IMG/VR virus record: IMGVR_UViG_2703718769_000016
Span: 1 to 19,413 of that record
Source of the DNA: a virus
Taxonomy: Duplodnaviria > Heunggongvirae > Uroviricota > Caudoviricetes
Reading direction: 5' to 3' (one strand)
DNA: 19,413 bases
Of this stretch, positions 4,611 to 19,413 are shown piece by piece (the first letter of the stretch is position 1; every line of letters starts with the position of its first letter). A program made the translations under genes and the position numbers. The notes under the pieces are model-generated. The model saw only the letters and a list, made by a program, of their open reading frames with translations, was not told the origin of the DNA and did no database searches.

Positions 4611-4684
4611 TTTTCAATTTCCGTTATTGATAACTAATGTAAATTACTGTTTGGTGCATATATTCGAGAGTATTTTATTACTCA

Positions 4685-4906: not shown

Positions 4907-5486
4907 AATTATCTCCATTTTCACAAATGAACTTTGTTGATGCAGTGCCTGGTGCCTCTAGGTGACGTTAACCAGTTAACAATTAACGCCGGAATACATA
5001 AGAGGATACTTACGCCAGTAAAAGACCGCTTTACTGATTTAACTGTTCCGCGTGCGCTTAGCCGCATTCACCGCATCACAAAATTCACTTTAAAAAGGGC
5101 GGCAGAGCAGTCACGGAGTAAAACTGATACCGCCAAACGTCACCAGAAAATTGATAACAGAGGGCGTTGCAGCGGGGTTGTCACTTAAGCGTATGGTCAA
5201 CCTTACAACCCGGTGTCCTCAACGGGGAAGAAATAACCCCGCCATACTTACCGCCGCGCCATTTCGCGGATTGCCACAACCGGAAGCACACGGTCGAAGA
5301 AATCTAACGACAAGCCTTCTAAGGAAAAGACGCCTTCGCCGTGTGCTTTCGTGTTGTGCCCTGACTTTTCAGGGAAATATCCTTTCAGTAAACTGTCAGT
5401 GCCGGATGCTCACCCGTGTCCGGTGCACGTTCTCCCCCTCACCAGTGGATAACTCCAAAACTACTGACAACCCCAGGAGGGTGAAT

Positions 5487-5741
5487 ATGGCAAATATTTA
5501 TAGTCCTGACGAATATTTCAAAATAACTAATCAAAACATCAAAAATATTGTTGCCACTCAACAACTCTTTGGTAAATTACTTGGAGTAATTGCTGCCCGC
5601 ACAGGTTTGACTAATGAACTAAAGGAGATAATTGAATCCAGTGCTGCGACAGAAGAATCGATGTCTGAGCATGTTGAGTATTCAAAGCAGTTTATTCTCA
5701 ACTCAATGTCTTTGGTTCGCATAATTAAAGACCATTCTTAA
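5487..5741 (+). CDS. Hypothetical 84-aa protein, opposite strand to the early-left operon (sieB-position moron)
   Basis: Strong SD (CCAGGAGGG) 5-7 nt upstream of ATG at 5487; AT-rich coding sequence; predicted helical soluble protein; the long upstream extension to 5151 looks non-coding (R/K-rich, no SD). Confidence 0.5.
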   Translation: MANIYSPDEYFKITNQNIKNIVATQQLFGKLLGVIAARTGLTNELKEIIESSAATEESMSEHVEYSKQFILNSMSLVRIIKDHS

Positions 5742-5940
5742 CGCTTAAGAACACTTCGTTTATGAAGCATCCACTCGCATCTGGTGATGTTGTATTTATC
5801 GTAGTTAAATCGCTTTTCTTAATAGCGCGTTTAGCAATCCAGATGCGGGCCTCAGTACCTGCATTTGGTTCCACCTGCTGGAGGCGCTTTGCATCTTCCA
5901 GAAGCAGGGCGATAACGTGTTTTAATTCTGCCTCGTTCAT
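5725..5940 (-). CDS. Hypothetical small protein (71 aa), early-left operon
   Basis: ATG at 5940 lies 1 nt after the stop of the upstream 51-aa ORF (GGTGAATAAAATG), i.e. translationally coupled; ORF track begins it at an upstream GTG (5949). Confidence 0.4.
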   Translation of the reverse strand: MNEAELKHVIALLLEDAKRLQQVEPNAGTEARIWIAKRAIKKSDLTTINTTSPDASGCFINEVFLSVKNGL

Positions 5941-5941
5941 T

Positions 5942-6097
5942 TTATTCACCTGAGTTTCTTTCCAGCCAGCGACGCGCGCCAGCTTCGGTTTTAAACGTTT
6001 TGCTTCTGGTATACGTCATCGCGGTGAACGTACCGTCCTGGTTTGGGAACACGCCGAAAACCAGAGATTCATTGTTGCCAAGATTGAGCATATCCAT
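5942..6097 (-). CDS. Small 51-aa protein, YdaF-like (first gene of the leftward operon)
   Basis: Not in the ORF track (under 60 aa). MDMLNLGNNESLVFGVFPNQDGTFTAMTYTRSKTFKTEAGARRWLERNSGE; SD GAGG 6 nt upstream of ATG at 6097; length and position match Rac ydaF from memory. Confidence 0.4.
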   Translation of the reverse strand: MDMLNLGNNESLVFGVFPNQDGTFTAMTYTRSKTFKTEAGARRWLERNSGE

Positions 6098-6264
6098 GTT
6101 GACCTCATTTACCCTTAACGCCGGGTAGCGGAACTAAAAACCTGCTGCGCTGTTATACAAAGTGTTCCCGCCGTCATGTTCATACGCCTCGGGCTGGCTA
6201 CTTAACCCCTGACCACTGCCGGGTAACTCGAAGTATTGCCCTGCATTCTGTGAAGCGGGGTGGG

Positions 6265-6320
6265 TTGTAATGAATATAAGAATATTTAGTTTTGCCGTCA
6301 AGTTGAATATAAATATTTTT
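6265..6320. promoter_or_regulatory. OL-like operator/promoter region (repeated TGAATATAA sites)
   Basis: TGAATATAAG at 6271-6280 and TTGAATATAAAT at 6303-6314; the same 12-mer recurs at 7031-7042 on the other side of the repressor gene. Confidence 0.35.
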
Positions 6321-6346
6321 AAGATAAAAGGCCGGCAAAGCCGACC
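6318..6346 (-). terminator. Rho-independent terminator downstream of the repressor gene
   Basis: Minus-strand hairpin GGTCGGC-TTT-GCCGGCC (one G-U pair) followed by TTTTATCTT. Confidence 0.5.
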
Positions 6347-6370
6347 TCTGATTACAGGGAAAAGCGGGAG

Positions 6371-7015
6371 CTAGAGGCTGAACTGAACACCTTTTGCTAC
6401 AGCAACGATGTTACATTCCGGTGTAAGTAAGGATGATTGATAGCGTGGGTTAAGGGGGGCTAAGTACACGAGCTTTCCATCAATAACTAATTTTTTTATA
6501 GTCATGGATGGTTCGTTTGTGAGTGGATCTGGGACTATTACTGCGACGATGCTACCATTTTTATATTTTTCGCCAGGCCTCATGATCACTGTGGCTCCAA
6601 CTGGAATGCTTGGGGATCCTGATGGATTGTGCATAGTATCATCAGGCATTGAAACGGCAAAATCTCCCTCCTTGACATCAAAGAATGTGGTGATCCTGTC
6701 GACATTTCCCATAGTTTTCTCTCCTTTTAATATTAGGAAAGAAATCGCTTCTCCCCAAGAAAGGTATGGGATTTGGGTACCTGGATTTTTCTGCACAAGG
6801 GATGATTCAGGTGATGATACTCCATACAGGAGATAGGACTCAGTAGTGCCTAGTGCTAGGGCTAATTTACTAAGAGCTTTGCTACCTGGTTCGTTTAGAT
6901 CTTTCTCCCAGTATCCTATTGTTACCCCAGTTACGCCAGAAAGCTTGCCAAGTTCAACTTGGGTCAGACCTTTGTCTTTTCTGAGTTTCTTAAGCCTAAT
7001 GCCAAGGCTTTCCAT
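6371..7015 (-). CDS. CI-like prophage repressor (N-terminal HTH_XRE, C-terminal S24 LexA-like peptidase domain)
   Basis: N-terminal LTQVELGKLSGVTGVTIGYWEKD helix-turn-helix; C-terminal domain with S24-type fold features; SD GGGAGA upstream of ATG at 7015; divergent from a Cro-like gene. Confidence 0.85.
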   Translation of the reverse strand: MESLGIRLKKLRKDKGLTQVELGKLSGVTGVTIGYWEKDLNEPGSKALSKLALALGTTESYLLYGVSSPESSLVQKNPGTQIPYLSWGEAISFLILKGEKTMGNVDRITTFFDVKEGDFAVSMPDDTMHNPSGSPSIPVGATVIMRPGEKYKNGSIVAVIVPDPLTNEPSMTIKKLVIDGKLVYLAPLNPRYQSSLLTPECNIVAVAKGVQFSL

Positions 7016-7024
7016 TATTTTCTC

Positions 7025-7114
7025 CCGCGAATTGAATATAAATTATTTTAGATTGTATTGACCTAAAAAAAATTACCCTTTAATCTAAAAATACTTAGTT
7101 TTTAAGGGGGCGAA
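7025..7114. promoter_or_regulatory. OR-like operator region with divergent promoters (pR-like for the cro-like gene, pRM-like for the repressor)
   Basis: TTGAATATAAAT at 7031-7042 (identical to the 6303-6314 site); TTGACC at 7057-7062 then 17 nt then TAATCT; SD AAGGGGG before ATG 7115. Confidence 0.4.
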
Positions 7115-7342
7115 ATGCGAGTTGATGAACTTGTCCAGTTTTTTGGTTCTGTCCAAAGAGTCGCTGATTTTTATGGGGTAACCCGAGAAGCTATATACAT
7201 GTGGCGTAAGCGTCCCGGCGAAATAGTTCCCAAGGGGAGGGCTGCTGAAGCAGTTGCATACTCCAAGGGAAAATTATCGTTGAACCCAGAACTTTACAAA
7301 AAGAAGGATAACACCTCGAACGAAAGGAAAAATGATTCATGA
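7115..7342 (+). CDS. Cro-like HTH regulator (YdaS family)
   Basis: 75-aa protein with HTH (FGSVQRVADFYGVTREAIYMWRKR); divergently transcribed from the CI-like repressor; stop overlaps the next gene's ATG (ATGA). Confidence 0.7.
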   Translation: MRVDELVQFFGSVQRVADFYGVTREAIYMWRKRPGEIVPKGRAAEAVAYSKGKLSLNPELYKKKDNTSNERKNDS

Positions 7343-7776
7343 AAATCAAACATGAGCACATCCGCATGGCGATGAATGCGTGGCTGCTTTATCCGAGGGT
7401 AGGGCGCAAAAAAATCGCTGATGATATAGCGACAGCATATTTTGAGCTTGAAATGACTTATCCACCAATGCATGACACCTCTACGACAGAGGGTATTGGA
7501 TTGAACATACAAAATATTTTTCGCTGGCTTGAAAAGGATACGCCTGATGCTGTTGAAAAAATTCAGGCACTAATTCCGGCTATCCTGACTGTTCTTCCGC
7601 GTGAACTGCGTTATCACCTCAGTATTTTTGACACTGTTGAGCGCCGTGCATTACTGGCGGCGCAGGAAGCGTTAAGTACGGCAATTGATGCACATGATGA
7701 TGCAGTCCAGGCCGTTTACCGGAAAGCGTATTTCAGCGACGGCGGGTCATCCGGCGAGTCTGTTGTGGTGCATTGA
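7339..7776 (+). CDS. YdaT-like (CII-analogue) early regulatory protein
   Basis: 145-aa ORF translationally coupled to the cro-like gene; family assignment by position and recalled similarity only. Confidence 0.5.
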   Translation: MKIKHEHIRMAMNAWLLYPRVGRKKIADDIATAYFELEMTYPPMHDTSTTEGIGLNIQNIFRWLEKDTPDAVEKIQALIPAILTVLPRELRYHLSIFDTVERRALLAAQEALSTAIDAHDDAVQAVYRKAYFSDGGSSGESVVVH

Positions 7777-7862
7777 TATTTATGCCAGACCCCTGCTGAT
7801 TCTGTTGATTGGGGAATCACAGATTATCACCAGAGGATGGTTCGTCACAAGGTGAGGCAATT

Positions 7863-8873
7863 ATGGCCGCATTACCATACATGCAACTTTACATAGCTGA
7901 TTACCTGGCGGACACCATGCATTTGTCCGCAGAGGAGCACGGTGCGTATTTGTTGCTGATGTTCAATTACTGGCAAACAGGGAAGCCAATACCCAAAAAC
8001 AGACTGGCAAAAATCGCCCGTCTGACTAACGAGCGATGGGCTGATGTTGAACCATCCTTGCGGGAGTTTTTTTGCGATAACGGCGACGAATGGGTGCATC
8101 TTCGGGTTGAGGAAGATCTGGTATCAGTCAGGGAAAAATTAACCAAAAAATCAGCCGCCGGAAAAGCATCTGTTCAAGCCAGAAGAAGCAGAAAGGAAGC
8201 ATATGTTCAAACAAAACAAGAGAGAGATTTAACAGGTGTTCAAACAAATGTTGGTGTTGTGTTTGAACATGACGCAAACACAAAAGCAACTAATAAAGAT
8301 ACAGATCTAAAAGAATTAAACCCCACACATAACGCGCGCATGCGCGAGAGTGCTCCAACCGGTGAGTCGAATGGTGCGTCGTTGCAGACAGCCGAACCTG
8401 AATACCTGGACGGCCTGAGCGAACCGATCGGGAAATTTTCGATGACCACTGTCTGGCAGCCGTCGCCGGATTTTCGACAACGGGCAGCAGTGTGGGGTAT
8501 GGCTCTGCCTGAGCCGGAATTTACACCTGCTGAGCTTGCTGCATTCCGGGATTACTGGATGGCGGAGGGGAAGGTTTTCACGCAGGTTCAGTGGGAGCAG
8601 AAATTTGCCCGCCACGTGCAGCACGTCAGGGCACAGGTAAAACCAGTCAGCAAGGGGGTAAGCCATGCAGCATCAGGTGGCACGGCATCACGGGCAGTTC
8701 AGAAAATCCGGGCAGCACGAGAACAGTGGGAACGTGAAAACGGATTTATCAGCAACGGAAACGGCCTGGAAGCTGTGGGAACTTATGGGGGAGGTTTATT
8801 CAAACCGCTGGACTCAGAAGAACGGGGCCGCACCTTCGAAGCTCTGGATTGCCCAGATTGGCGCGATGACTGA
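7863..8873 (+). CDS. Replication initiation protein, DUF1376 (YdaU-like) N-domain with DnaT-like C-terminal region
   Basis: SD AAGGTGAGG then ATG at 7863; N-terminus MAALPYMQLYIADYLADTMHLSAEEHGAYLLLMFNYW typical of DUF1376; central low-complexity linker whose DNA carries iteron-like repeats. Confidence 0.7.
   Translation: MAALPYMQLYIADYLADTMHLSAEEHGAYLLLMFNYWQTGKPIPKNRLAKIARLTNERWADVEPSLREFFCDNGDEWVHLRVEEDLVSVREKLTKKSAAGKASVQARRSRKEAYVQTKQERDLTGVQTNVGVVFEHDANTKATNKDTDLKELNPTHNARMRESAPTGESNGASLQTAEPEYLDGLSEPIGKFSMTTVWQPSPDFRQRAAVWGMALPEPEFTPAELAAFRDYWMAEGKVFTQVQWEQKFARHVQHVRAQVKPVSKGVSHAASGGTASRAVQKIRAAREQWERENGFISNGNGLEAVGTYGGGLFKPLDSEERGRTFEALDCPDWRDD
8170..8275. repeat. Iteron-like repeats (TGTTCAAAC core), candidate replication origin inside the initiator gene
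   Basis: tgttcaagc at 8172, tgttcaaacaaa at 8204 and 8238 (direct, 32-34 bp spacing), inverted copy tgtttgaaca at 8262; flanked by an A-rich stretch. Confidence 0.35.
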
Positions 8874-9327
8874 ACAGCAAATCCGGCTGGTCTGCCGTCA
8901 GTGCATGGACCGCTGCCGGGCGGGTGAAACGTGGCCCCCGGACCTGGCTGAGTTTGTTGCGCTGATTTCGGAGAGTGGGGCAAATCCATTTGGTCTTACG
9001 GTGGATGCCGTGATGGAGGAGTACCGTCGCTGGCGCAATGAATCCTGGCGGTACGACGGGAGTGATAAATACCCGTGGCCACAGCCTGTGCTGTACCACA
9101 TTTGCCTCGAGATGCGTTCAAAGGGGATTGAGCGCCAGATGACCGAAGGGGAGTTAAAACGGCTTGTGGAAAGGCAGCTGACGAAATGGGCAAAGCATGT
9201 TGGTAATGGCCTCAGTGTTCCGCCAGTCCGGCGACAACTGGCAGCACCCAAACGCCCGCCAGGGCCAACGCCAATTGAATTGCTGAAACAGGAATATGAG
9301 CGCCGGAAGGCGGCCGGTTTTGTCTGA
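8665..9327 (+). CDS. Lambda P-like replication protein (helicase loader family); start uncertain
   Basis: C-terminal two-thirds aligns by eye to lambda P ([14 protein letters not shown] / PFLPSPGQFVAWC; YPWPQP / YPWKSN). Strong SD AAGGGGG before ATG 8665 but that start overlaps the upstream gene by 208 nt; alternatives are ATG 8785 and ATG 8866 (ATGACTGA overlap with the upstream stop). Confidence 0.6.
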
Positions 9328-9361
9328 GTTGAGAAGTAATTTTTACCGGGAGGAAAATTTA

Positions 9362-10075
9362 ATGGAAACCGTATTTGACGCACTGAAAGCACTGAAAAAA
9401 GCCTCGTCGCACGAGATTGCAGCCCGTCTTGAAATCAGCCGTGACGATGCTGTCAACGAGCTGTGGAAGCTGAAACGCCGTGGTGAAGCTGATAACAAGG
9501 GGTCGATGTGGTGGCTGACGAGTGAGGCAACTGAAATGGCCACAAAAACCACTGCGGAGATGCTGATTAACGCAATTGAACAGCATGGTCCTCAGTCGGC
9601 TGACGAACTGGCGTTAATGTTCGGGATTACCTCCCGCCGGGCGAATTCAACGCTGGCAATGGCAATAAGCAAAGGTCGTCTGATTCGAGTAAATCAGAAC
9701 GGTAAATTTCGTTACTGCCTGCCGGGCGATAATTTACCAGCAGAGCCGAAAGCTGCATCGGTAACGGAAACTGCTGGTAAAGCCTTTCCTCAGCCAGCAG
9801 GTGTTGCGTTACCAGTCCGGGAAGCGGAAACACAGGAAGAAATTAAAACTGAAAGTGTGGCGGTCACAGTGCAGTCACAGCCGTCGTTCACCAGAAAGCA
9901 TCCGGATAGTCTGATTTTACCATCGCTGCATGTGGCTAACCGCGAACTGCGCCGGGCAAAAGGTCAGGTTCAGAAGTGGGAGCGAGTCTGTGCTGCGCTG
10001 CGTGAGCTGAACAAGCACCAGGATATTGTTCGACAGATTACTGATTCATCCTGTTGTGTTGCATCAGACAAGTGA
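9362..10075 (+). CDS. Hypothetical protein with two winged-helix-like segments
   Basis: SD GGGAGGAAAA before ATG 9362; 237 aa; wHTH-like stretches ([23 protein letters not shown] and [29 protein letters not shown]). Confidence 0.6.
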
Positions 10076-10090
10076 TTGCAGGGGACGCTG

Positions 10091-10594
10091 ATGGCAAGAG
10101 TATTTACACCAGAAGAGCGGGAAAAAATTAAGGGGCAGGTTGTTGAACTCGTACGCCAGAGCGGTCGCGAGACGTTACGGCAACTGGAAGCTAAAACAGG
10201 TGCAACAAGATATCTGGTGATCGTTCTCGCCAGAGAGCTGGTTGCCAGTGGTGATGTATACAACTCTGGCTACGGGTTATTTCCGTCTGAACAGGCTCGT
10301 AAAGACTGGCAAAACGCCCGCAAAAAACTTTCAAGGGAAAAGGCGAAGAAACCGGCTGTGGTTGATCCGGACCTTATCTGGTCATTACCAGACGGAGAAA
10401 TACGCCGCTACGACAGGCGCCTGAACATAATCTGTCGCGAGTGCCGGAATAGTGAAGTTATGCAGCTAGTGCTGGCGTTTTATCAGGGGGTGGGGTCAGG
10501 AGGTGGTGCTGTGAGTGAAATTAGCTATCAGGCTTCAATTTCCGCTGGCATTCGCATCAAAGGAGAGGAGCATGGAAATAAAACCAGAAGATGA
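10091..10594 (+). CDS. Hypothetical prophage protein
   Basis: 167-aa ORF; ATG 10091 follows GGGGA; ORF track start at 10076 is a TTG; same strand and tight spacing with neighbours. Confidence 0.5.
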   Translation: MARVFTPEEREKIKGQVVELVRQSGRETLRQLEAKTGATRYLVIVLARELVASGDVYNSGYGLFPSEQARKDWQNARKKLSREKAKKPAVVDPDLIWSLPDGEIRRYDRRLNIICRECRNSEVMQLVLAFYQGVGSGGGAVSEISYQASISAGIRIKGEEHGNKTRR

Positions 10595-10928
10595 GTTAAG
10601 TAATATTGTTTTATTTCCGGTAAAAGAGGATGACCCACGTAATCAGGTTAATTTTCTTTATGAGCCATCGGAAAGACCATATTGTCATCACGCCTCTGTC
10701 CGGGTTGACGAAAAAGAGCGTCAGGTCCGCTGTAAAATCTGCGGTGCAGTTGTGGAGCCATTTGACTGGATGCCCTCTGTGGCGAAAAGAGAAACCAGAC
10801 TGGCAGATGATGTAAGGCTCTTGCGCCAGGAGGAACGGGAAAGGCGGAGAAATGTAGAAAAGCTAATTCAGATTGAGCGTAACGCGAAAGCGCGGATACG
10901 CAGGGCGGCAAAATCAAGAACTGAATAA
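10572..10928 (+). CDS. Hypothetical protein with zinc-finger-like motif (C/H-x...CxxC)
   Basis: SD AAAGGAGAGGAG before ATG 10572; PYCHHASVRVDEKERQVRCKICGAV motif; basic coiled-coil-like C-terminus. Confidence 0.5.
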   Translation: MEIKPEDELSNIVLFPVKEDDPRNQVNFLYEPSERPYCHHASVRVDEKERQVRCKICGAVVEPFDWMPSVAKRETRLADDVRLLRQEERERRRNVEKLIQIERNAKARIRRAAKSRTE

Positions 10929-11021
10929 TTAAATTTAGCACTGTTAAAAATTTAATCCTTAACCGGAGGGATTTCTGCACCCTCAGAACATCAGGAGGCC
11001 GTTCGAAATGGCGGTAGTGAA

Positions 11022-11204
11022 ATGCGAAAATTCAAAATAATTATTGAAACGGGAATAGCTGGTGGAGATTTTGAGGATGTATTCGAAGTAGATGATGACG
11101 CAACACCTGATGAAATTCATGACGAAGCAAAAGAAATTTTCTTTAACTACTGCAATTACTCATACCACGAAATAAAAGATGAAGAGGAAGGACAAAATGG
11201 CTGA
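11022..11204 (+). CDS. Small acidic hypothetical protein (60 aa)
   Basis: ORF with acidic composition; stop overlaps the next ATG (ATGGCTGA). Confidence 0.4.
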   Translation: MRKFKIIIETGIAGGDFEDVFEVDDDATPDEIHDEAKEIFFNYCNYSYHEIKDEEEGQNG

Positions 11205-11373
11205 TTTTGGTTCAACTAAATATAACGCCAGTTTTGAAGAATGGCATGAACTGTTAATGGATTATGCAGAGTTACGCGGTGGAAGTGCCGCTGATGCTGA
11301 AGCATGGCGTGATGATTATGAAGCAGGGAAAACTCCGGTCGAAGCATATTGTGATGAGTGGGGCGATGAATGA
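11197..11373 (+). CDS. Small acidic hypothetical protein (58 aa)
   Basis: SD GAGGAAGGA before ATG 11197; coupled to neighbours at both ends. Confidence 0.45.
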   Translation: MADFGSTKYNASFEEWHELLMDYAELRGGSAADAEAWRDDYEAGKTPVEAYCDEWGDE

Positions 11374-11729
11374 GCGAGATTAATTATCAGGAAGGGCATG
11401 AAAAGGCAGGGCAGGCAAAACCAGTGGCATGGCGATATCGCTACGTGAAAAAAGGCGTTACAGACTTTCAGGGGAAGCAGTGGGCTGGTGACTGGAAATA
11501 TGTCCAGACAAAAGAAGATTGTAACGACAGACCGAACTATGAAATTCAGGCGTTATTCACGGCACCGCCAGCCCCGGTGACATCAGAAGGACTAGTTAAA
11601 GCCGTGTGCTTTTATGAACAGGTAAAGCGTGAGAATCCACCAGTCGAAACAGGTGCATGGAAAGATGCTGTTGACTGGGTACTCAAAGAGGCTTGCCAGG
11701 CTGTAAGCATTAGCAACAAAGGGGGGTGA
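11370..11729 (+). CDS. Hypothetical prophage protein (119 aa)
   Basis: ATG overlaps the upstream stop (ATGA); plausible globular composition. Confidence 0.55.
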   Translation: MSEINYQEGHEKAGQAKPVAWRYRYVKKGVTDFQGKQWAGDWKYVQTKEDCNDRPNYEIQALFTAPPAPVTSEGLVKAVCFYEQVKRENPPVETGAWKDAVDWVLKEACQAVSISNKGG

Positions 11730-11732
11730 GTA

Positions 11733-11909
11733 ATGCGTGTGGCATGTATCAGTTTGTTACCGTACCCGACTCGTTTTTTGGCTTCTGCGCTAATTGCAAA
11801 GCCGCGTGTCCTGATGGATGACAGCATCATCCCGACACCAAAGCGCCGCCATACCGGTATTGCAGCGGCACGACGAGCAGCAAAGAAACGCAGGAGAGCA
11901 AAACGATGA
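11733..11909 (+). CDS. Small basic protein (58 aa), not in the ORF track
   Basis: Strong SD AGGGGGGTGAG before ATG 11733; C-terminal KRRHTGIAAARRAAKKRRRAKR; stop overlaps the next ATG. Confidence 0.3.
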   Translation: MRVACISLLPYPTRFLASALIAKPRVLMDDSIIPTPKRRHTGIAAARRAAKKRRRAKR

Positions 11910-12100
11910 AAAACCGTAAAGCAAAAATTCTGTTAGCTCGCAGAAACGGTGTTGGTGTCTGGCGGTGGGTGAGGATTAGTAACAGACGGGTGAGGTTGAC
12001 GGGGTGTTGCGGTGTTATGGGGCACAGTTGTTGCAAAAAGCCCAGCGCGGCGCAAAACCGCTGGAAAAACCACTGTTATCTGCGCACTAAAGGAGAGTGA
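11906..12100 (+). CDS. Questionable small ORF (64 aa) over a G/T-rich repeat region
   Basis: SD AGGAGAG before ATG 11906 and exact stop-start abutment with neighbours, but W/R/C-rich translation and GGGTGAGG repeats suggest it may be non-coding. Confidence 0.2.
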   Translation: MKNRKAKILLARRNGVGVWRWVRISNRRVRLTGCCGVMGHSCCKKPSAAQNRWKNHCYLRTKGE

Positions 12101-12101
12101 G

Positions 12102-12617
12102 ATGGCGTTAACACACCGCGAACTCTGTCAGATTGCGTACAAGTTCCTTAAGCGCAACGGGTTCAAGGTTTGCTTTCATGACCGCTTTATAGCTGTAACC
12201 AGTACCGGAGAACAGCCAGATGCTATGGGATTCAGAAATTCAGCATCATGCCTGATAGAGGCGAAGTGTTCTCGTGCTGACTTGTTGGCAGATAGAAAAA
12301 AGCGTTTCCGTAAAAATCCCTCTCTTGGCATGGGCGACTGGAGATTCTTTATTAGTGAGCCGGGAATTATTTCAATTGAGGATTTACCACCTGGCTGGGG
12401 ATTACTTCACGTTGTTAACGGAAGAGTACGGAAAGTACATGGGTGGCCCAAGGGTAATTGCTGTTGGGGTAATCCTGACGATAAGCCATTTACTGGAAAT
12501 AAGCAGGTTGAATGCGATTACATGTTGTCTGCATTAAGGCGCATGGAGTTGAGAGGGCACCTTAATGAAATATATGACGGTGTAATTGTTAATAAGAAAG
12601 AAGGAAACGCGGCATGA
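12102..12617 (+). CDS. Putative PD-(D/E)XK-fold nuclease-like protein (MmcB-like)
   Basis: SD AAAGGAGAG before ATG 12102; motif pattern D...(IEAK) consistent with a PD-(D/E)XK core (PDAMGF...[12 protein letters not shown]); 171 aa. Confidence 0.45.
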
Positions 12618-12958
12618 CGACTTTTACCAGAGAGCAGTTAATAGCTCACGCAGAGGAGACTATTGAAGCACAGAGACTGTGCATACCGGGCACAATCGAC
12701 AATGACATCATCCGCACATATAAGATGGATATTGCTGTTCTGGAAATCGCACTGGCATCGCTGGCAGCAGAGCCAGCCGGTAAATTGCATGAATACAAAC
12801 CAGTGGGACATCAGCGTCTGGTCGACGAGTTAACCATGCTGGTAAAGCAGTTAACCTGGCAACTGAGGAAAACGAAGCCGGACTGTAAATTGCCGGGTAA
12901 GGCGATGGACTACCTGAAGCGAAACGGACTGATAAGTGCAGAGGATGTTTTACGATGA
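12614..12958 (+). CDS. Hypothetical prophage protein (114 aa)
   Basis: ATG overlaps the upstream stop (ATGA); helical composition. Confidence 0.55.
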
Positions 12959-13038
12959 CCTGGCATGGGGCATTCACAACGGTAGGGATTGCAATGGCGG
13001 TGGTGCTGATTGTGTATTCGATTTGTCGCTGGGGGTAA
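12955..13038 (+). CDS. Putative 27-aa hydrophobic peptide ([27 protein letters not shown])
   Basis: ATG overlaps the stop of the preceding gene (ATGA); single predicted transmembrane helix; too short for the ORF track. Confidence 0.3.
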
Positions 13039-13149
13039 AAACGATTTGCGGGGAAAGGATAGTTAAGTAGAATTGCTGCGGGTGCTTGAGGCTATCTGTC
13101 TCAGGCATGAACACCAAAAGGCAGATAGAGAAAAGCCCCAGTTAACATT

Positions 13150-13215
13150 ACGCGTCCGGCAAGACGCTTAACATTAATCTGAGGCCATATCTATGCTCTA
13201 CACACGTAGGTTAGC
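13150..13215 (-). ncRNA. Predicted Sok-like antisense RNA of the hok locus (approximate position)
   Basis: Inferred from hok-family organisation; candidate minus-strand promoter (TTGCCT then 17 nt then TAACCT) would place a transcript antisense to the upstream in-frame ATG and SD at 13181-13195. Confidence 0.25.
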
Positions 13216-13249
13216 CTCTTACGTGCCGAAAGGCAAGGAGAAGCAGGCT

Positions 13250-13405
13250 ATGAAGCAGCAAAAGGCGATGCTAATCGCCCTGATCGTCATCTGTTTAACC
13301 GTCATTGTGACGGCACTGGTAACGAGGAAAGACCTCTGCGAGGTACGAATCCGAACCGGCCAGACGGAGGTCGCTGTCTTCACAGTCTACGAACCTGAGG
13401 AGTAA
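13250..13405 (+). CDS. hok: Hok/Gef-family type I toxin (51 aa membrane peptide)
   Basis: MKQQKAMLIALIVICLTVIVTALVTRKDLCEVRIRTGQTEVAVFTVYEPEE: hydrophobic TM helix plus conserved RKxLCE...EVA motif of the Hok family; SD AAGGAG; an in-frame upstream ATG at 13193 with its own SD (mok-like leader); structured 3' region with fold-back hairpin and terminator. Confidence 0.8.
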   Translation: MKQQKAMLIALIVICLTVIVTALVTRKDLCEVRIRTGQTEVAVFTVYEPEE

Positions 13406-13475
13406 GAGACCAGGCGGGGGAGAAATCTCCCGCCACCTCTGATGTGTCAGGCATCCTCAACGCACCCGCACTTAA

Positions 13476-13495
13476 CCCGCTTCGGCGGGTTTTTG
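13476..13495 (+). terminator. Rho-independent terminator of the hok transcript
   Basis: CCCGC-TTCG-GCGGG followed by TTTTT; preceded by hairpin GGCGGGGGAGA-AAT-CTCCCGCC at about 13414-13434. Confidence 0.6.
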
Positions 13496-13506
13496 CATTA
13501 GTCTGG

Positions 13507-13545
13507 TTGACAAAAACAGGAAAATGCGAAAATATAAGGTTTACG
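13507..13545 (+). promoter_or_regulatory. Candidate sigma70 promoter for the two-gene insert
   Basis: Perfect -35 TTGACA at 13507-13512; A/T-rich -10 candidates (AAATAT / TATAAG) 17-20 nt downstream; lies between the hok terminator and the 13571 ATG. Confidence 0.35.
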
Positions 13546-13570
13546 AATTCTAAAAAAAGCGAAACTTGAA

Positions 13571-14221
13571 ATGAATGAAAATCAGTTAGCTCCTTGTTGG
13601 GAATTTCAACCTTATCTTGCTGAAAGCAATGTTCGCCAGTTGTTGGCGGAGATCGCTAACGTACTTGAGCAGTTGTACTATCATAAGCACGTATTAGACA
13701 GCAACTGGTCTGAAGGTGTAAGGGCTTATGATTGGGTCAGAAACCATCTTATTCAAAATGAAGGCGCAATTCCTGGTCTTAAGATGATTTCCAAGGGGTT
13801 GGACTATGTAGTTGCTTTAAATAAAGTTCCGCTACAATTTACCAAAGATTGCATTAATAACCCCAAAAAGAAACATCGCCTGCGTCGAAATAAAGTAGAG
13901 CATGAGCAGCTTTCATTGTTTGGTGATGTTGAGGCTGAGCAAGATATTACATGGCGAGTCATAGCGGAGCCATTTTTATCCGAAGAGGGAGATGGTGAAT
14001 TAGAGTCCACACTGCCTCGTTGGGAGGTGGCTCTTGTTGGGTTTAATATCTATGGTGCTCAGATTAGTATGGTTTCTCATCAATCTACAGCATCAATGCC
14101 ACTTATGCCCCTTGACGGTAACACACTCCCTGGCGAAGCGGAGATTAATAAGGTGTCTCTTCGTCGGCGTACGAAGGATAAAATTTTGGATGTGAGCAGT
14201 AATGGAACATCAGGTGAATAA
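13571..14221 (+). CDS. Hypothetical 216-aa protein, candidate toxin/effector partner of the HTH-M78 peptidase
   Basis: Long ORF in a low-GC insert; no motif recognised by eye; 3' end overlaps the start of the downstream HTH/peptidase gene by 20 nt (operon). Confidence 0.6.
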   Translation: MNENQLAPCWEFQPYLAESNVRQLLAEIANVLEQLYYHKHVLDSNWSEGVRAYDWVRNHLIQNEGAIPGLKMISKGLDYVVALNKVPLQFTKDCINNPKKKHRLRRNKVEHEQLSLFGDVEAEQDITWRVIAEPFLSEEGDGELESTLPRWEVALVGFNIYGAQISMVSHQSTASMPLMPLDGNTLPGEAEINKVSLRRRTKDKILDVSSNGTSGE

Positions 14222-15305
14222 CTTCACTGAGTATCGAGGCGATAAGCTCAAACTAGCAAGAATGGCTATTGGGCTTTCATGTGAAGAGTTGGCCGAAAAA
14301 ATTGGCAAAACAAAACAATTCGTTAGCAAATTGGAGAAGGGATTTAGGCCATCAGAGCAATGCCTGGAGTTAATAGCCTCAGCTCTTATGATTAAGCCCG
14401 ATTTTCTATTTACTGAGCGAAAATATGCTCTGGAAAGCGATGTTTGCCATTTTCGGAGTAAGAAGTCCAGGACTCAAACGCTGACTAATAGTGTCTTGGC
14501 TAGGGCTGAGATTCTTAATATTATAATTTCTGCTGTTGAAGGTGAAATCGAATTCCCTGATGTCAACATACCAGAGCACCCAGGAACTGAATTACTTACC
14601 CCGAATGATATTGAGCGAGTGGCAGAAGATTGTCGCCGTGCATGGAATCTAGGTCTTGGCCCTATATCATCAATGGTGAAATTGGCGGAGAGTTTGGGGG
14701 TAATCGTTGCGCATGTTACGGGAGTCGATGATCGTGTTGATGCATTCACTGTTCACAATAACAGGCCTGTTATTATCAGGAACAATGTAAAAAAAAGCAT
14801 ATGTAGATTTCGCTCTGATTTAGGTCATGAGTTAGGGCATTTAGTAATGCATGAGGGCATAACTACTGGTGATAAACTTACGGAATCACAAGCTGATCAC
14901 TTTTCTAGCGCCTTATTGGTTCCTAGGCTATCTTTCATTAAAGAATTTCCACGAATACGAGGTAAGCAATTCGATTGGAGTGCTCTGGTTGAATTTAAGC
15001 TTAGATGGAAAATTAGCCTTAAAATGTGTATTTATCGAGCCAGTGCATTAGGACTATTGACCCAGGAACAGGCAAGAACTGGCTATATGCATCTTAATTC
15101 TAGAGGGTACACGAGAGTTGAACCAGGTGATGAACTTTTGCGCCACGAAGAACCAAGTATGCTGTCCGAAGCGATTGACATGCTGGATGATGCAACTTGG
15201 TTAAGAATTCTTATGAAAACTGGCTTGAGTCAAGATTTAATTCGTGAGTTGTTCTCCATCAATCGACCTATTACAAATCCAAGAAATATTTTTCAGATTG
15301 TTTGA
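14202..15305 (+). CDS. Xre-family HTH fused to ImmA/IrrE-type (M78, COG2856) zinc metallopeptidase
   Basis: N-terminal HTH (LKLARMAIGLSCEELAEKIGKTKQFVSKLEKG); HEXXH zinc-binding motif HELGHLVMHE about 140 residues later; 367 aa, typical for HTH-COG2856 fusions. Confidence 0.85.
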   Translation: MEHQVNNFTEYRGDKLKLARMAIGLSCEELAEKIGKTKQFVSKLEKGFRPSEQCLELIASALMIKPDFLFTERKYALESDVCHFRSKKSRTQTLTNSVLARAEILNIIISAVEGEIEFPDVNIPEHPGTELLTPNDIERVAEDCRRAWNLGLGPISSMVKLAESLGVIVAHVTGVDDRVDAFTVHNNRPVIIRNNVKKSICRFRSDLGHELGHLVMHEGITTGDKLTESQADHFSSALLVPRLSFIKEFPRIRGKQFDWSALVEFKLRWKISLKMCIYRASALGLLTQEQARTGYMHLNSRGYTRVEPGDELLRHEEPSMLSEAIDMLDDATWLRILMKTGLSQDLIRELFSINRPITNPRNIFQIV

Positions 15306-15310
15306 GCATA

Positions 15311-15335
15311 CCCGCTACGGCGGGTTTTGTTTTTT
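15311..15335 (+). terminator. Rho-independent terminator after the HTH-M78 gene
   Basis: CCCGC-TAC-GGCGGG followed by TTTTGTTTTTT, 6 nt after the stop; near-identical core to the hok terminator. Confidence 0.65.
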
Positions 15336-15407
15336 CCGGGCTTTTTGGTTTACAATCCGCACGCCAGCCTGAACAACTGGCACCTGCTGCGCCAGCAGAG
15401 AAAAACG

Positions 15408-15686
15408 ATGGCGCACAATACCAAATCACACAATTCTGATAATTCAGCTGTCTTTGCCAGCAGGCACGGGCGGCGTTCCCGCACATTCAAATCTGACTGG
15501 TTCCAGCATGACCCATGCACAGAAGAACAGGCCGAATGGTTAATTCAGTGCTACCGCAGGCGCGGATACGAGTTTCAGAAAGACCTCAGCCTCGACCGAC
15601 TGCACTGGATAATCTCTGTGAGGCTCCCTTACTCCGAGCGCCCACCGCGTCCATCCCGCACATTCCAGCAACGTATCTGGAGGTAA
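15408..15686 (+). CDS. Hypothetical protein (Rem-like position upstream of the YdfU-like gene)
   Basis: 92-aa ORF from the first ATG with any SD-like context (15408); stop TAA overlaps the SD/GTG start of the next gene; start uncertain. Confidence 0.4.
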   Translation: MAHNTKSHNSDNSAVFASRHGRRSRTFKSDWFQHDPCTEEQAEWLIQCYRRRGYEFQKDLSLDRLHWIISVRLPYSERPPRPSRTFQQRIWR

Positions 15687-15687
15687 C

Positions 15688-16737
15688 GTGCGGGTATTAC
15701 TTCGACCTGTTCTTGTGCCAGAACTCGGGCTGGTGATCGTTAAGCCGGGCCATGAATCCATGCCGGTATTCCAAAATACCCGGGTACTGGTGGAGCCGGA
15801 ACCGAAAAGCATGCGTAATCTGCCGTCCGGGGTCGTTCCTGCCGTTCGCCAGCCGCTGGCGGAGGATAAATCATTACTGCCATTTTTCAGCGACGAACGA
15901 GTGATTCGTGCTGCTGGTGGCGCTGGCGCATTGTCTGACTGGTTACTGCGCCATGTTAAATCCTGCCAGTGGCCACACGGCGATTATCACCACAGTGAAA
16001 CCGTCATTCACCGTTATGGCGCTGGCGCGATGGTGTTGTGCTGGCACTGTGACAACCAGCTGCGTGACCAGACATCCGAATCACTCGGGCAACTTGCTCA
16101 TCAAAACCTGTCAGCATGGATGATTGACGTCATACGCCATGCAATGAATGGCACGCAGGAGCGGGAATTGTCGCTGGCTGAATTATCCTGGTGGGCGGTC
16201 TGCAATCAGGTGGCGGACGCGTTTCCGGAGGCAGTATTACGTCGTTCTCTGGGGTTACGTGCGGAAAAAATCCGCTCGGTGTATCGCGAAAGCGACATCA
16301 TACCGGGAGAGCAGACCGCCACCAGCATACTGAAGCAGCGCACAAAAAATATTGCGCCGCCGTCTCACGCCCGCCAGCAACAGAACCCACCACAGGAAAA
16401 GACGGTGGTATGCATCACCGTTGATCCGGAGTCTCCGGAATCTTTTATGAGGCGACCTAAACGTCGCCGTTGGGTAAATGAGAAATATACGCGCTGGGTG
16501 AAGACACAGCCGTGTGCGTGTTGTGGTCAGCCAGCCGACGATCCCCATCACCTGATTGGTCACGGTCAGGGAGGGATGGGAACAAAGGCCCACGATATTT
16601 TCACGCTACCGCTGTGTCGGGAGCATCATAACGAGCTTCATGCGGATCCGCTGGCGTTCGAAGAAAAGCATGGTTCTCAGGTTGATTTAATTTTTCGTTT
16701 TCTTGATCACGCCTTTGCAACCGGTGTGCTTGGGTAA
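15688..16737 (+). CDS. YdfU-like DUF968 protein with C-terminal HNH-like Cys/His motif
   Basis: 349-aa ORF (same length as K-12 Qin YdfU from memory); GTG start with GGAGG SD; C-terminal CACCGQPADDPHHLIGHGQGG...CREHHNELH zinc-binding HNH-like signature. Confidence 0.7.
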   Translation: MRVLLRPVLVPELGLVIVKPGHESMPVFQNTRVLVEPEPKSMRNLPSGVVPAVRQPLAEDKSLLPFFSDERVIRAAGGAGALSDWLLRHVKSCQWPHGDYHHSETVIHRYGAGAMVLCWHCDNQLRDQTSESLGQLAHQNLSAWMIDVIRHAMNGTQERELSLAELSWWAVCNQVADAFPEAVLRRSLGLRAEKIRSVYRESDIIPGEQTATSILKQRTKNIAPPSHARQQQNPPQEKTVVCITVDPESPESFMRRPKRRRWVNEKYTRWVKTQPCACCGQPADDPHHLIGHGQGGMGTKAHDIFTLPLCREHHNELHADPLAFEEKHGSQVDLIFRFLDHAFATGVLG

Positions 16738-16749
16738 AAGGGGGTATTG

Positions 16750-17112
16750 ATGTGTATAGAGTTTGTTTTGCCTTACCCGCCGACGGTGAATACTTACTGG
16801 CGACGTCGTGGCAGCACATATTTTGTATCAAAAGCCGGGGAGCGTTATCGCCGGGCAGTGGCGTTTATTGTTCGCCAGCAGCAGTTGAAATTAAGCCTGT
16901 CCGGACGGCTGGCAATAAAAATTATTGCAGAGCCACCGGATAAGCGCCGCCGTGACCTGGACAATATTCTGAAAGCACCGCTGGATGCGCTGACGCACGC
17001 GGGGTTGTTAATGGACGATGAACAGTTTGATGAAATCAATATTGTACGTGGTCAGCCAGTATCTGGTGGACGGCTGGAAATAAGAATTACAGAGGTGGGT
17101 GTGCATGAATAA
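16750..17112 (+). CDS. rusA: RusA Holliday-junction resolvase (crossover junction endodeoxyribonuclease)
   Basis: 120 aa; motifs PPTVNTYWRRRG, DKRRRDLDNILKAPLDALTHAGLLMDD and GGRLEIRITE match the RusA family; SD AAGGGGGT. Confidence 0.85.
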   Translation: MCIEFVLPYPPTVNTYWRRRGSTYFVSKAGERYRRAVAFIVRQQQLKLSLSGRLAIKIIAEPPDKRRRDLDNILKAPLDALTHAGLLMDDEQFDEINIVRGQPVSGGRLEIRITEVGVHE

Positions 17113-17794
17113 CCAGTATTTACAGTTTGTTCGTGAGCAACTCATGATTGCCACTGCAGATCTCAGTGGGTCGACAAAAGGCCAGCTGGAAGCCTGGCAG
17201 GAAAATGCCCTGTTCGATACAGGGCGTTACAGACGCAAAAAAATTCGTTACCGCGATGAGGTAACTGGAAAAATGATCACGCGGGATAATCCCCCGATCC
17301 AGGGTAAACAATCACTGGCGAAAGGCTCATCAATTGCGCTGGTCAGTCCTGTTGAGTTTGCAACATCATCGTGGCGGCGTGCCCTTCTGGAACTGGAAGA
17401 ACATCAGAAGGCGTGGTTGTTGTGGTGTTATGGCGGAAACATTTGCTGGGAGCATCAGATCGCGATAACGCAGTGGGTGTGGAGTGAATTTAAAACTCAG
17501 TCCGGCTCCAGAAAAATTGCAGTGAAAACGCTGGAGCGTGTGAAGAAGTTGATCTGGCTGGCGGCACAGGATGTCAGAGGATGGGTTACCGGGTGTGAGG
17601 TCTACCAGAGACAGGAGCTTGCCAGACTGTGTGGAGTTAAGCCTGATAACTGGAGCCATAATTATGCGAACTACTGGCGTGAGATGTGCGATATTTTTAA
17701 GCGCCTCGATAGAGAATCCTTGATTTGCTCCGTGAAAATAAGAGCGCAACAAAAAGCGACCTTTTCACGACGAGATATTGCAAAAGTCAATTAA
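17105..17794 (+). CDS. Putative late-gene antitermination protein (Q-like), function inferred from position
   Basis: 229-aa ORF whose ATG overlaps the rusA stop (ATGAATAA) with SD GAGGTGG; followed about 70 nt downstream by a promoter-like element and a strong terminator (pR'/tR'-like); no Cys-rich zinc finger seen, so the family is uncertain. Confidence 0.4.
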   Translation: MNNQYLQFVREQLMIATADLSGSTKGQLEAWQENALFDTGRYRRKKIRYRDEVTGKMITRDNPPIQGKQSLAKGSSIALVSPVEFATSSWRRALLELEEHQKAWLLWCYGGNICWEHQIAITQWVWSEFKTQSGSRKIAVKTLERVKKLIWLAAQDVRGWVTGCEVYQRQELARLCGVKPDNWSHNYANYWREMCDIFKRLDRESLICSVKIRAQQKATFSRRDIAKVN

Positions 17795-17816
17795 ATCGCG
17801 TATGTTTCGTATAAAT
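17778..17816 (+). promoter_or_regulatory. Candidate pR'-like late promoter
   Basis: TTGCAA (17778-17783) then 17 nt then TATGTT (17801-17806); TATAAAT at 17810-17816 as an alternative -10. Confidence 0.25.
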
Positions 17817-17856
17817 CTGATATTTTGCCGATTTTGTACGCGATGGCAAAGTAAGA

Positions 17857-17882
17857 AAAAAACACCGCCAGGTGGTTTTTTT
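17857..17882 (+). terminator. tR'-like Rho-independent terminator downstream of the Q-like gene
   Basis: AAAAAAACACC-GCCA-GGTGG-TTTTTTT: hairpin flanked by an A-run and a T-run (bidirectional-looking). Confidence 0.45.
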
Positions 17883-18005
17883 ATGTCCGAAAATCTCGTC
17901 AGTACAGTAAACGCGCTGGTGGTGGTGAATACCGGTCTTTCAGCTTGCTGGCTTTTTTGACAAGAGTTATTGGTGTGTCACGTTAACCGGAAAAGGGAAA
18001 AAGAC

Positions 18006-18203
18006 ATGCTGAAACAGCAGGATATGACCGAAACCGCCAGAGTGGTGTTTAATGAATTAAGCGTCACTGAACCGGCGACAGTCGGGGAGATTGCGCAGAA
18101 TACTTATCTTTCACGTGAACGCTGCCAGTTAATACTGACCCAGCTTGTTATGGCGGGGCTGGCAGACTATCAGTTCGGTTGTTACAGACGCCTTCAGTCC
18201 TGA
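18006..18203 (+). CDS. Small wHTH-like DNA-binding protein (65 aa)
   Basis: SD AAAGGGAAAAAG before ATG 18006; TVGEIAQNTYLSRERCQLILTQLVMAGL resembles a winged-helix recognition segment; terminator overlaps the stop. Confidence 0.45.
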   Translation: MLKQQDMTETARVVFNELSVTEPATVGEIAQNTYLSRERCQLILTQLVMAGLADYQFGCYRRLQS

Positions 18204-18215
18204 AGGCTTTTTTAT
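18190..18215 (+). terminator. Rho-independent terminator
   Basis: Perfect hairpin GCCTTCAG-TC-CTGAAGGC followed by TTTTTTATTT. Confidence 0.6.
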
Positions 18216-18354
18216 TTGTGGTAAATGGGCGGCTGGTGGGTGTTAGGGGCACTCACCAGCCATCTGCTCATGCGTCCGGATCACAAGCAAACCTCAGGCC
18301 CATCTGCTTTGCGCAAAAGCAGAATGAGCCTATCAGAGACAGGCTTAATGATCC

Positions 18355-19413
18355 ATGCTTAATACTGTAAAAATATCCAGTTGTGAGTTAATCAACGCCG
18401 ACTGCCTGGAATTTATCCGGTCGTTACCCGAAAATTCTGTTGACCTGATAGTCACGGACCCGCCGTACTTTAAAGTGAAGCCTGAGGGCTGGGATAACCA
18501 GTGGAAGGGCGACGATGATTACCTGAAGTGGCTGGACCAGTGTCTTGCGCAGTTCTGGCGGGTGCTGAAACCTGCCGGAAGTCTTTACCTGTTCTGTGGC
18601 CATCGCCTGGCATCTGATATCGAAATCATGATGCGTGAACGCTTCAGTGTGCTGAACCATATTATCTGGGCGAAGCCGTCCGGACGCTGGAACGGGTGCA
18701 ACAAGGAAAGCCTGAGGGCGTATTTCCCCGCCACAGAGCGCATTCTGTTCGCGGAACATTATCAGGGGCCGTATCGCCCGAAAGATGCCGGGTATGAGGC
18801 GAAGGGCAGGGCACTGAAACAGCATGTGATGGCCCCGCTGATTGCTTACTTTCGTGATGCGCGCGCTACCCTGGGGATAACGGCAAAACAGATTGTGGAT
18901 GCCACAGGAAAGAAAAACATGGTGTCGCACTGGTTCAGTGCCAGCCAGTGGCAGTTACCGAACGAGGATGATTACAGAAAACTTCAGGTGCTGTTTGCCC
19001 GGGTGGCAGAAGAGAAACATCAGCGGGGTGAACTGGAAAAGCCACATCACCAACTGGTCAGCACATACAGTGAGCTGAACCGGCAGTATGCCAGCCTGCT
19101 GGAAGAGTACAAATCACTGCGGCGTTATTTTTCCGTATCGGCAGCCGTTCCTTATACGGATGTCTGGACGCACAAGCCTGTGCAGTATTATCCGGGCAAA
19201 CATCCCTGTGAAAAACCGGCAGATATGTTGCGGCAAATGATTACCGCCAGCAGTCGTCCGGGTGACCTGGTTGCAGATTTCTTCATGGGGTCCGGTTCGA
19301 CAGTCAAAGCAGCGATGGCGCTGGGGCGTCGTGCAATTGGTGTCGAGCTGGAGGCTGAACGTTTTGAGCAGACCGCAATGGATGTACAGAATTTAATCAG
19401 AAAGAGAGAGTGA
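18355..19413 (+). CDS. DNA methyltransferase, beta-class amino-MTase (N6-adenine or N4-cytosine), apparently orphan within this window
   Basis: Motif IV TDPPYF near the N-terminus (residues about 34-39) and motif I DFFMGSGST near the C-terminus give the beta-group motif order; 352 aa; ORF ends exactly at the window edge. Confidence 0.85.
   Translation: MLNTVKISSCELINADCLEFIRSLPENSVDLIVTDPPYFKVKPEGWDNQWKGDDDYLKWLDQCLAQFWRVLKPAGSLYLFCGHRLASDIEIMMRERFSVLNHIIWAKPSGRWNGCNKESLRAYFPATERILFAEHYQGPYRPKDAGYEAKGRALKQHVMAPLIAYFRDARATLGITAKQIVDATGKKNMVSHWFSASQWQLPNEDDYRKLQVLFARVAEEKHQRGELEKPHHQLVSTYSELNRQYASLLEEYKSLRRYFSVSAAVPYTDVWTHKPVQYYPGKHPCEKPADMLRQMITASSRPGDLVADFFMGSGSTVKAAMALGRRAIGVELEAERFEQTAMDVQNLIRKRE

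Follow-up and report, generated by a model that had tools for sequence, protein, structure and literature searches.

Morons, a concept of Juhala and Hendrix, are autonomous units of promoter, gene and terminator that lie between genes adjacent in related phages (PMC3594210). In T4-type phages, promoter-early stem-loops (PeSLs) are repeated regulatory cassettes at which recombination shuffles open reading frames (ORFs) and yields mini-circles (PMC2839356, PMC4122927). Rad52-like recombinases drive mosaicism on short homologies, the minimal efficient pairing segment of Red-beta being 23-27 bp (PMC3945230). RosmerTA systems, in which a Zn-peptidase antitoxin accompanies a toxin whose function is unknown, have been shown to defend against phages (bioRxiv 10.1101/2022.05.11.491447; PMC10440598). 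Here we analysed a 19,413-nt stretch of DNA from a virus of the Caudoviricetes (IMG/VR record IMGVR_UViG_2703718769_000016, positions 1 to 19,413; hereafter the window), in which a RosmerTA cassette, rmrT-rmrA, stands between two near-identical copies of the intrinsic terminator that follows the neighbouring hok gene. We refer to this hok-type terminator, ACCCGC-UUCG-GCGGG followed by a U tract, as T.

The cassette resembles morons in four respects: it is missing where the neighbouring genes of related phages adjoin, its GC content deviates from that of its surroundings (0.40 versus ~0.54), it has its own conserved predicted promoter block and its own predicted strong terminator, and its cargo has a predicted function that would benefit the lysogen, phage defence. 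It departs from the moron definition in that its terminator has the same sequence as the one that ends the preceding unit and as those that end all the alternative cargos found at the site, and doubles as a mosaic joint.

The original prediction, made from the letters of the window, was that near-identical terminator cores flank the insert, and both copies were found where it placed them. T-left (ACCCGCTTCGGCGGGTTTTT, 13475-13494) lies 70 nt downstream of the hok stop (13405), while T-right (ACCCGCTACGGCGGGTTTT, 15310-15328) begins 4 nt past the stop, at 15305, of the helix-turn-helix (HTH)-M78 ORF, rmrA. The stem and T tract are the same in both, and the difference is indeed confined to the loop: ACCCGC-TTCG-GCGGG-TTTT and ACCCGC-TACG-GCGGG-TTTT differ by a single change, T to A at loop position 2. 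Because of this loop change, the longest perfect run between the window's two copies is only 11 nt, compared with 20 nt in the EC8-type copies described below. When up to 3 mismatches were allowed, the 19-mer occurred twice in the 19.4-kb window against 0.01 occurrences expected, and 0 of 200 shuffles contained two matches. No direct repeat in the region ranked above this pair, whose copies are 1835 nt apart, and both copies scored as terminator-like, with RNA folding energies of -15.1 (T-left) and -15.3 kcal/mol (T-right). T-left is also found 3' of hokD in the K-12 Qin prophage (L092) and at all empty sites, and the tail of T-right, TTTTGTTTTTT, is the tail found 3' of the single terminator at those sites.

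Related loci that lack the insert carry one terminator copy, as had been proposed as a check. A single T stands between hok and a conserved 92-aa gene in phage vB_EcoS-640R1 (L001) and in E. coli prophages L007, L008 and L220; on the 5' side this T has the flank of T-left (..cacccgcactta), and on the 3' side it has the tail and flank of T-right (TTTTGTTTTTTCC.GGC.TT.TGGTTTACAAT..). Since T-right thereby precedes exactly what follows the single T at empty sites, the right junction lies inside T. The site spans 715-716 nt when empty and 2551 nt in the window, a difference equal to the 1835-nt period, and this agreement in size, together with the matching flanks, bears out the proposal that the terminators delimit the cargo. 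A simulated product of precise excision from the window aligned in one piece at up to 95.7% identity and was covered over at least 80% of its length in 3383 of the 5426 complete E. coli genomes, short-cargo sites joined from two pieces being counted among them. The empty form was present in 40 of the 80 IMG/VR loci fetched with the 92-aa protein.

Other forms of the site were also seen. The window's closest empty site, in E. coli PS2Canimalfeces12 (L220, 821-835; 95.7%), has a stem mutation in its single terminator (GCTTCGTCGGG), so the terminator is not invariant. L009 carries a 329-nt AT-rich insert after hok-T (1341-1669) with neither an annotated gene nor a second terminator, and the right junction of this insert lies further downstream, at ..ACGCCAGCCTGAAC. 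About 15 IMG/VR loci are without any hok-type terminator (L028-L034, L057, L063, L066, L069, L072 and L085 among them); in these loci, a promoter-like sequence, TTGACG..GACAAT, joins the ..GCACGCCAGCCTGAAC right block ~110 nt upstream of the 92-aa gene.

The same cassette was found before more than one right flank. The window's cassette occurs in ~237 complete E. coli genomes, mostly in another context, the EC8 type (L005). The window and EC8-type loci are 94.2% identical in the left flank and 93.8% identical in the cargo, but after T-right the EC8 type continues into a rem-type flank that is merely 72% identical to the window over its alignable part, and homology stops at 15335, within the T tail. 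An empty form with one T exists for the EC8 context as well (97% identity). A second cassette, doc-like, follows hok-T in L212, where the right flank is of a third kind, and replaces hok in L070 and L073; L212 and L073 share 727 nt at 95% identity, a stretch that starts with the ATG of the antitoxin gene and stops where T ends. In 933W, homology to hok halts just 5' of the expected T, and T is not present. Among Genome Taxonomy Database (GTDB) representatives, the window-type cassette was found outside E. coli only in E. albertii, in the EC8-type context, and in none beyond Escherichia. Taken together, these comparisons identify T as the apparent point where cassettes are added, lost or swapped.

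The bracket also holds other cargos. We define the hotspot as the slot from hok-T to the T that precedes the 92-aa gene, between the nin-region genes and ydfU-rusA-Q. By their sequence, at least six types of accessory transcription unit (morons) share this bracket: the window-type rmrTA (L027); the Tritos-type rmrTA, whose right loop is CTCG (L002, L038); a third rmrTA type, with proteins of 213 and 373 aa (L018, L071); a split version with separate HTH (119 aa) and M78 peptidase (158 aa) proteins (L016, L017, L022, L025, L026, L186); a lipoprotein-like gene (L004, L006, L056 and others); and the doc-like toxin-antitoxin pair (L212). The stem sequence is the same for both T copies in all cargo types, the cargo genes end 4-17 nt 5' of T-right, and the left junction falls inside or just past the T tract in most types, with its position in the tract shifting by a few nucleotides among cargos. 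In the lipoprotein-like type, ~100 nt of the rmrA 3' end survive beside T-right.

The three rmrTA types share nucleotide similarity in short patches only, and their RmrA proteins are 32-44% identical between types, the window's sharing 44% identity with that of the L018 type and 32% with that of the Tritos type. Closer relatives exist outside the hotspot for the window's RmrA (72-75%) and for that of L018 (54%, compared with 44% to the window); for Tritos the margin is small (36-37% outside versus 32% to the window). Since the window and L018 proteins are closer to outside relatives than to each other, the rmrTA types are best read as separate arrivals rather than as products of divergence in place.

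Three further features of these cargos were recorded. The T-to-T spacing is 1835 nt in both the window (13475 to 15310) and L018 (2570 to 4405), and 1865 nt in Tritos; the equal spacing is probably a consequence of conserved gene lengths. The lipoprotein-like type has a truncated T-left, ACCCGCTTCGGCG followed directly by TTTTTT, with a folding energy of only -3.7 kcal/mol (L004, 1976-2000; also L006, L056, L064, L075, L078, L080 and L082), such that the hok mRNA of this type seems to have lost its own terminator. In L070 and L073 (3440-4421), the phd/doc-like pair includes a 164-aa Fic/Doc-type toxin with the motif HPFANANKR and ends 17 nt before T.

The window's own cargo has a GC content of ~0.40 (0.375-0.465 over 13500-15300), compared with 0.52-0.57 on either side. 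Its rmrA product matches the PADLOC RmrA profile (8e-107) over positions 2-342 of 370, with Pfam matches to HTH_3 (1.7e-8) and Peptidase_M78 (5.1e-11). The rmrT gene lies upstream and shares a 20-nt overlap with rmrA; a Pfam search of RmrT gave no family match. On these profile matches, the cassette is identified as a RosmerTA toxin-antitoxin system of predicted anti-phage function. It has the arrangement of other RosmerTA systems: the toxin, whose fold is unknown, comes first, and the antitoxin after it combines an XRE-type HTH with an ImmA/IrrE M78 Zn-peptidase domain. What sets it apart is its location, a bracket of hok-type terminators in a lambdoid nin-region hotspot; nothing out of the ordinary was seen in its proteins. 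Upstream of rmrT, the repeated motif GGTTGACAAA / GGTTTACGAA (repeated GGTTKAC), its copies 33 nt apart, surrounds TTGACA-N17-AAATAT. This block is also found 5' of rmrT homologues in four other contexts (L214, L215, L216, L218) and in Tritos, and the promoter-like spacing is kept even in L214 and L215, whose contexts are unrelated to that of the window. A promoter consensus scan of the window made no call at 13505-13547, and we therefore treat the block as a putative promoter. The GGTTGACAAA / GGTTTACGAA pair, which is kept across genera, is a candidate operator for the HTH of RmrA and the basis for putative autoregulation.

The reading that we prefer, with a probability of roughly 0.6, is that the slot is a moron hotspot in which every unit ends in a hok-type terminator and units have been moved by short-homology recombination at T. 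The anatomy of the locus, the empty sites, the several cargos per bracket and the breakpoints at T are observed; the recombination pathway, the activity of the promoter and terminators, and the origin of the first bracket we infer. The window would hold two tandem units, hok/sok with its T and then promoter-rmrT-rmrA with its T. T-left would terminate the hok mRNA, T-right would keep the predicted cassette promoter from reading into rusA-Q in the lysogen, and N-antiterminated lytic transcription would pass both copies. T, ~19-26 nt with its tail, is the sole sequence common to all units and their flanks, and for this reason recombination would join units there. Unequal crossing-over at T between lambdoid genomes resident in one cell could add, delete or transplant a unit, each with one T. 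If T-right of a cargo-bearing phage crossed over with the lone T of another lambdoid genome, the cargo would come to lie before the right arm of the second phage, which is the relation between the window type and the EC8 type, and the reciprocal product would be an empty site; a circle of cargo plus T, excised and then re-integrated, would give the same products. The enzymes would likely be phage Rad52-like or RecET-type recombinases acting on short homologies. Such recombination is plausible given the RecE-like exonuclease VIII encoded in the prophage and the 20-nt run in EC8. Of the two mechanisms that the original prediction had offered, recombination at terminators is thus the one favoured, by the two right flanks, the doc-like cassette and the many cargos, whereas a duplication made by the insertion itself found no support.

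It is also conceivable, although we consider it unlikely, that the bracket is ancient: one old event would have set a second T downstream of hok, and later cargos would have replaced each other inside it, either illegitimately or with the help of exchanges over the long outer flanks, while the T copies would be identical only through their function as terminators. Such a history would accommodate the lipoprotein-like cargo, with its rmrA 3' end kept by T-right and its truncated T-left, and it draws on clear functional roles for both T copies and on outer flanks (hok and the 92-aa gene) that are 90-97% conserved and able to carry exchanges. However, rmrTA is found with either of two unrelated right flanks, as is the doc-like pair, and in both cases homology breaks at T; one cassette with two right flanks requires a crossover at T, which excludes the outer flanks. 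Moreover, selection on a hairpin would tolerate compensatory changes, yet all cargo types have identical stems, and for at least two of the three rmrTA lineages closer relatives lie outside the hotspot.

Several observations nevertheless weigh against recombination at T. Perfect identity at T extends over 19-21 nt (11 nt within the window), below the 23-27 bp cited for Red-beta. Selection alone, acting to retain the terminator of hok and to protect Q from a constitutive promoter in the cargo, would likewise concentrate surviving junctions beside T. The rmrA remnant and the damaged T-left of the lipoprotein-like type indicate that some cargos were replaced within a bracket already present, through illegitimate recombination rather than at T. 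The 1.78 Mb of fetched loci contained no array of three or more T copies. A near-identical (at least 99%) pair of prophages with and without cargo was sought and none was found; since the best empty relatives reach only 95.7% (window type) and 97.0% (EC8 type), no recent gain or loss was caught. Finally, T is generic, and an rmrTA relative outside the hotspot (L214) has the same stem with another loop, so that the resemblance could be partly convergent.

The last of these points raises the question of how much the core sequence itself can tell. The exact 19-mer was found in at least 120 IMG/VR stretches, and among the matches listed, 96 of 123 occurrences were in unrelated contexts, on contigs with GC contents from 0.30 to 0.67; ACCCGC-UUCG-GCGGG-U(n) is a design that arises repeatedly in evolution. 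Because the 19-mer is so common, identity of the core alone is weak evidence for a common descent of its copies, and the apparent relatedness of the T copies rests on flank geometry, that is, on the flanks and the empty sites, with core identity proving nothing. Relatives of rmrTA outside the bracket end differently. The Limnobaculum cassette (L214; RmrA 72%), which lies after Q, ends in ACCCGC-CAATGT-GCGGG 80 nt past the stop; a relative on a Logan contig (RmrA 75%) has the terminator GGCTCGC-TTCG-GTGGGCC; and a relative in a Xenorhabdus prophage (RmrA 66%) is without a terminator. Overall, outside relatives have terminators of other sequence 22-80 nt past the stop, or none, compared with 4 nt in the window, and T-right does not appear to be native to rmrTA.

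These data also bear on convergence, under which the cassette would have arrived with its own terminator, matching that of hok through a near-optimal and very common design. We regard this as very improbable. It has on its side the occurrence of the exact 19-mer in at least 96 unrelated viral contexts, the ACCCGC-CAATGT-GCGGG-TTTTTT end of Limnobaculum rmrTA and a similar terminator upstream of the cassette in L215. Yet the tail and flank of T-right are exactly those of the single T at empty sites, at least six different cargos at one site end in the same stem, and the terminators of close rmrTA relatives differ in both sequence and distance; further, no second copy of the core was found outside the hotspot among the fetched loci save in L202, an unrelated contig with two copies. 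The original prediction had named ordinary terminator convergence without shared flanks as what would undo it; the core does have a convergent character, yet at this locus its flanks are shared.

Two observations on relatives outside the bracket are reported for completeness. In E. coli CP157162 (L216, 2864-5045) and in L217, a 58%-identical rmrTA lies directly upstream of sok/hok, 12 nt away; this order is opposite to that of the window, no terminator separates rmrTA from sok/hok, and the hok terminator closes both units. In the Limnobaculum prophage with rmrTA after Q (L214), a protein of the Acb2/Tad1-hairpin family, an anti-defence sponge family, is encoded beside the lysis genes (6154-6390).

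That a transposase, an integron-like integrase or a hairpin enzyme acting in trans duplicated the terminator as a target site can be set aside as highly improbable: a precise direct repeat of ~19-20 nt does surround the insert, with one copy at the empty site, and a hairpin might conceivably act as a structured site for recombination, but the cassette encodes RmrT and RmrA only, with no recombinase, transposase or integrase found by Pfam and PADLOC and no terminal inverted repeats found at its ends by repeat search, which makes transposition-type target duplication unlikely, while the repeat falls outside the usual size range for such duplications, the hairpin (6-7 bp stem, 4-nt loop) is without attC-like features, the window's one integrase belongs to the prophage and lies 12 kb off, and the T-tract junctions vary by a few nucleotides among cargos. 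The duplication by insertion that had been suggested for the terminator pair is further undercut by the terminator being functional and very common, and by its also ending the hok-less L073 cassette. Transposon, insertion sequence and integron readings were ruled out by the lack of a recombinase and of inverted repeats and by the small size of the hairpin; an integron attC is an imperfect palindrome of 57-141 bp, in contrast with the perfect 6-7 bp stem and 4-nt loop here, and no integron integrase was found. We also considered a duplication of 45 nt in place of 19 nt. The sequence after the left T tract, GCAT..TCTGGTTGACAA, resembles the right flank GCATTCTGGTTTACAA, a resemblance reached in 0 of 2000 shuffles for Tritos-left versus the empty site and with p = 0.03 for window-left versus window-right. 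This candidate was rejected, the GCAT..GGTTGACAAA..GCGAAAATAT..GGTTTACGAA block being native to rmrTA cassettes (Limnobaculum, Xenorhabdus and others); the GCAT.. block may at most have served as microhomology.

If units were moved at T, the closest parallel would be the PeSLs. In both cases a stem-loop terminator recurs on either side of non-essential genes within a hyperplastic region, the insertions, deletions and replacements that distinguish related phages end in the repeat, and the order of terminator and then promoter insulates units. The hotspot differs in belonging to temperate lambdoid rather than T4-type phages and in repeating the terminator alone, with a promoter specific to each cargo; the sequences after the two copies show a 12-nt resemblance (TCTGGTTGACAA versus TCTGGTTTACAA). 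It also has two copies per locus rather than dense arrays, and is known from sequence alone, whereas mini-circles are a feature of PeSLs. With Rad52-type mosaicism (PMC3945230) it shares a RecE-like gene, breakpoints that fall at a conserved segment of short length, and lambdoid phages and prophages as the partners in exchange; it differs in that the 19-26 nt of homology are at or below the minimal pairing segment and form a functional terminator rather than diverged coding sequence. The case is one of known phage mosaicism, not of a new mechanism or a new kind of system.

By its gene content, the window is assigned to a lambdoid (Qin/Rac-like) prophage (Table 1). Its hok gene is annotated as hokD in matching RefSeq records. 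The 3' element CCTCAACGCACCC (13456-13468), read from sequence, is complementary with one bulge to the 5' element GGGTGCTTGAGG (13080-13091), and T-left begins 6 nt after this fold-back element. The locus thus has the predicted features of a hok/sok type I toxin-antitoxin system, namely a Hok peptide, sok RNA and a 3' fold-back element, then a terminator. In an Rfam scan, sok was the only family above threshold. A sub-threshold match to isrK, a Salmonella sRNA carried by a prophage, was seen at 13414-13495 (24.6 bits versus a gathering score of 50, E 0.016); it spans the hairpin of the hok 3' untranslated region (3'-UTR) and T-left, and may reflect a shared two-hairpin 3'-UTR architecture or chance. 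The 92-aa ORF, which always stands before ydfU (DUF968), matched no Pfam family and is annotated as 'hypothetical' or 'toxin to Rem'.

Table 1. Positions in the window of the terminator pair, the cassette between the copies and the surrounding prophage genes.
Feature	Position	Strand	Details
Integrase	1-1287		Prophage's own, with Arm-DNA-binding domain; only integrase in the window
RecE-like exonuclease VIII	1633-4116		
CI-like repressor	6371-7015		
sok/hok	13080-13405		
hok/sok 5' regulatory region	13080-13255	+	Rfam sok RF01794, 117 bits, E 2.5e-27
mok/hok frame	13193-13405	+	hok ORF 13250-13405, 51 aa; Pfam HOK_GEF 6.2e-22
T-left	13474-13494	+	Stem AACCCGC/GCGGGTT, loop TTCG, five T; predicted native hok mRNA terminator
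Unit absent at empty sites, 1835 nt	13494-15328	+	Ends can be slid anywhere in the 19-nt repeat
Predicted promoter/operator block	13505-13547	+	-35 TTGACA 13507-13512, 17-nt spacer, AAATAT 13530-13535
rmrT, RosmerTA toxin, 216 aa	13571-14221	+	PADLOC RmrT 3.6e-24
rmrA, RosmerTA antitoxin, 367 aa	14202-15305	+	HTH_3 + Peptidase_M78
T-right	15310-15335	+	Stem ACCCGC/GCGGGT, loop TACG, tail TTTTGTTTTTT
Conserved 92-aa ORF	15408-15686	+	First gene of the right-hand block
ydfU-like, DUF968	15688-16737		
rusA	16747-17112		
Q	17099-17794		

These results delimit exactly a RosmerTA defence cassette carried by a lambdoid prophage and document a nin-region hotspot, from hok to ydfU, in which at least seven alternative cargos share one terminator-delimited slot. 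The motif hok-T ... T-(92-aa gene) can be used as bait for new accessory and defence genes in prophages. If the cassettes do move by recombination at T, this would account for the spread of defence and toxin-antitoxin morons from one lambdoid phage to another in the absence of dedicated mobility genes, and it would extend the PeSL idea from T4-type to temperate phages. More speculatively, and in our view doubtful as it stands, the hok-type terminator could be a portable recombination adaptor in temperate lambdoid phages, the counterpart of the T4-type PeSLs. Were that the case, any T-ended unit could be transplanted into, or deleted from, any phage bearing the hairpin, by way of unequal crossover or of a mini-circle of cargo plus T, and intrinsic terminators that are ubiquitous and nearly identical would offer a general means by which defence cassettes pass between otherwise unrelated phages.

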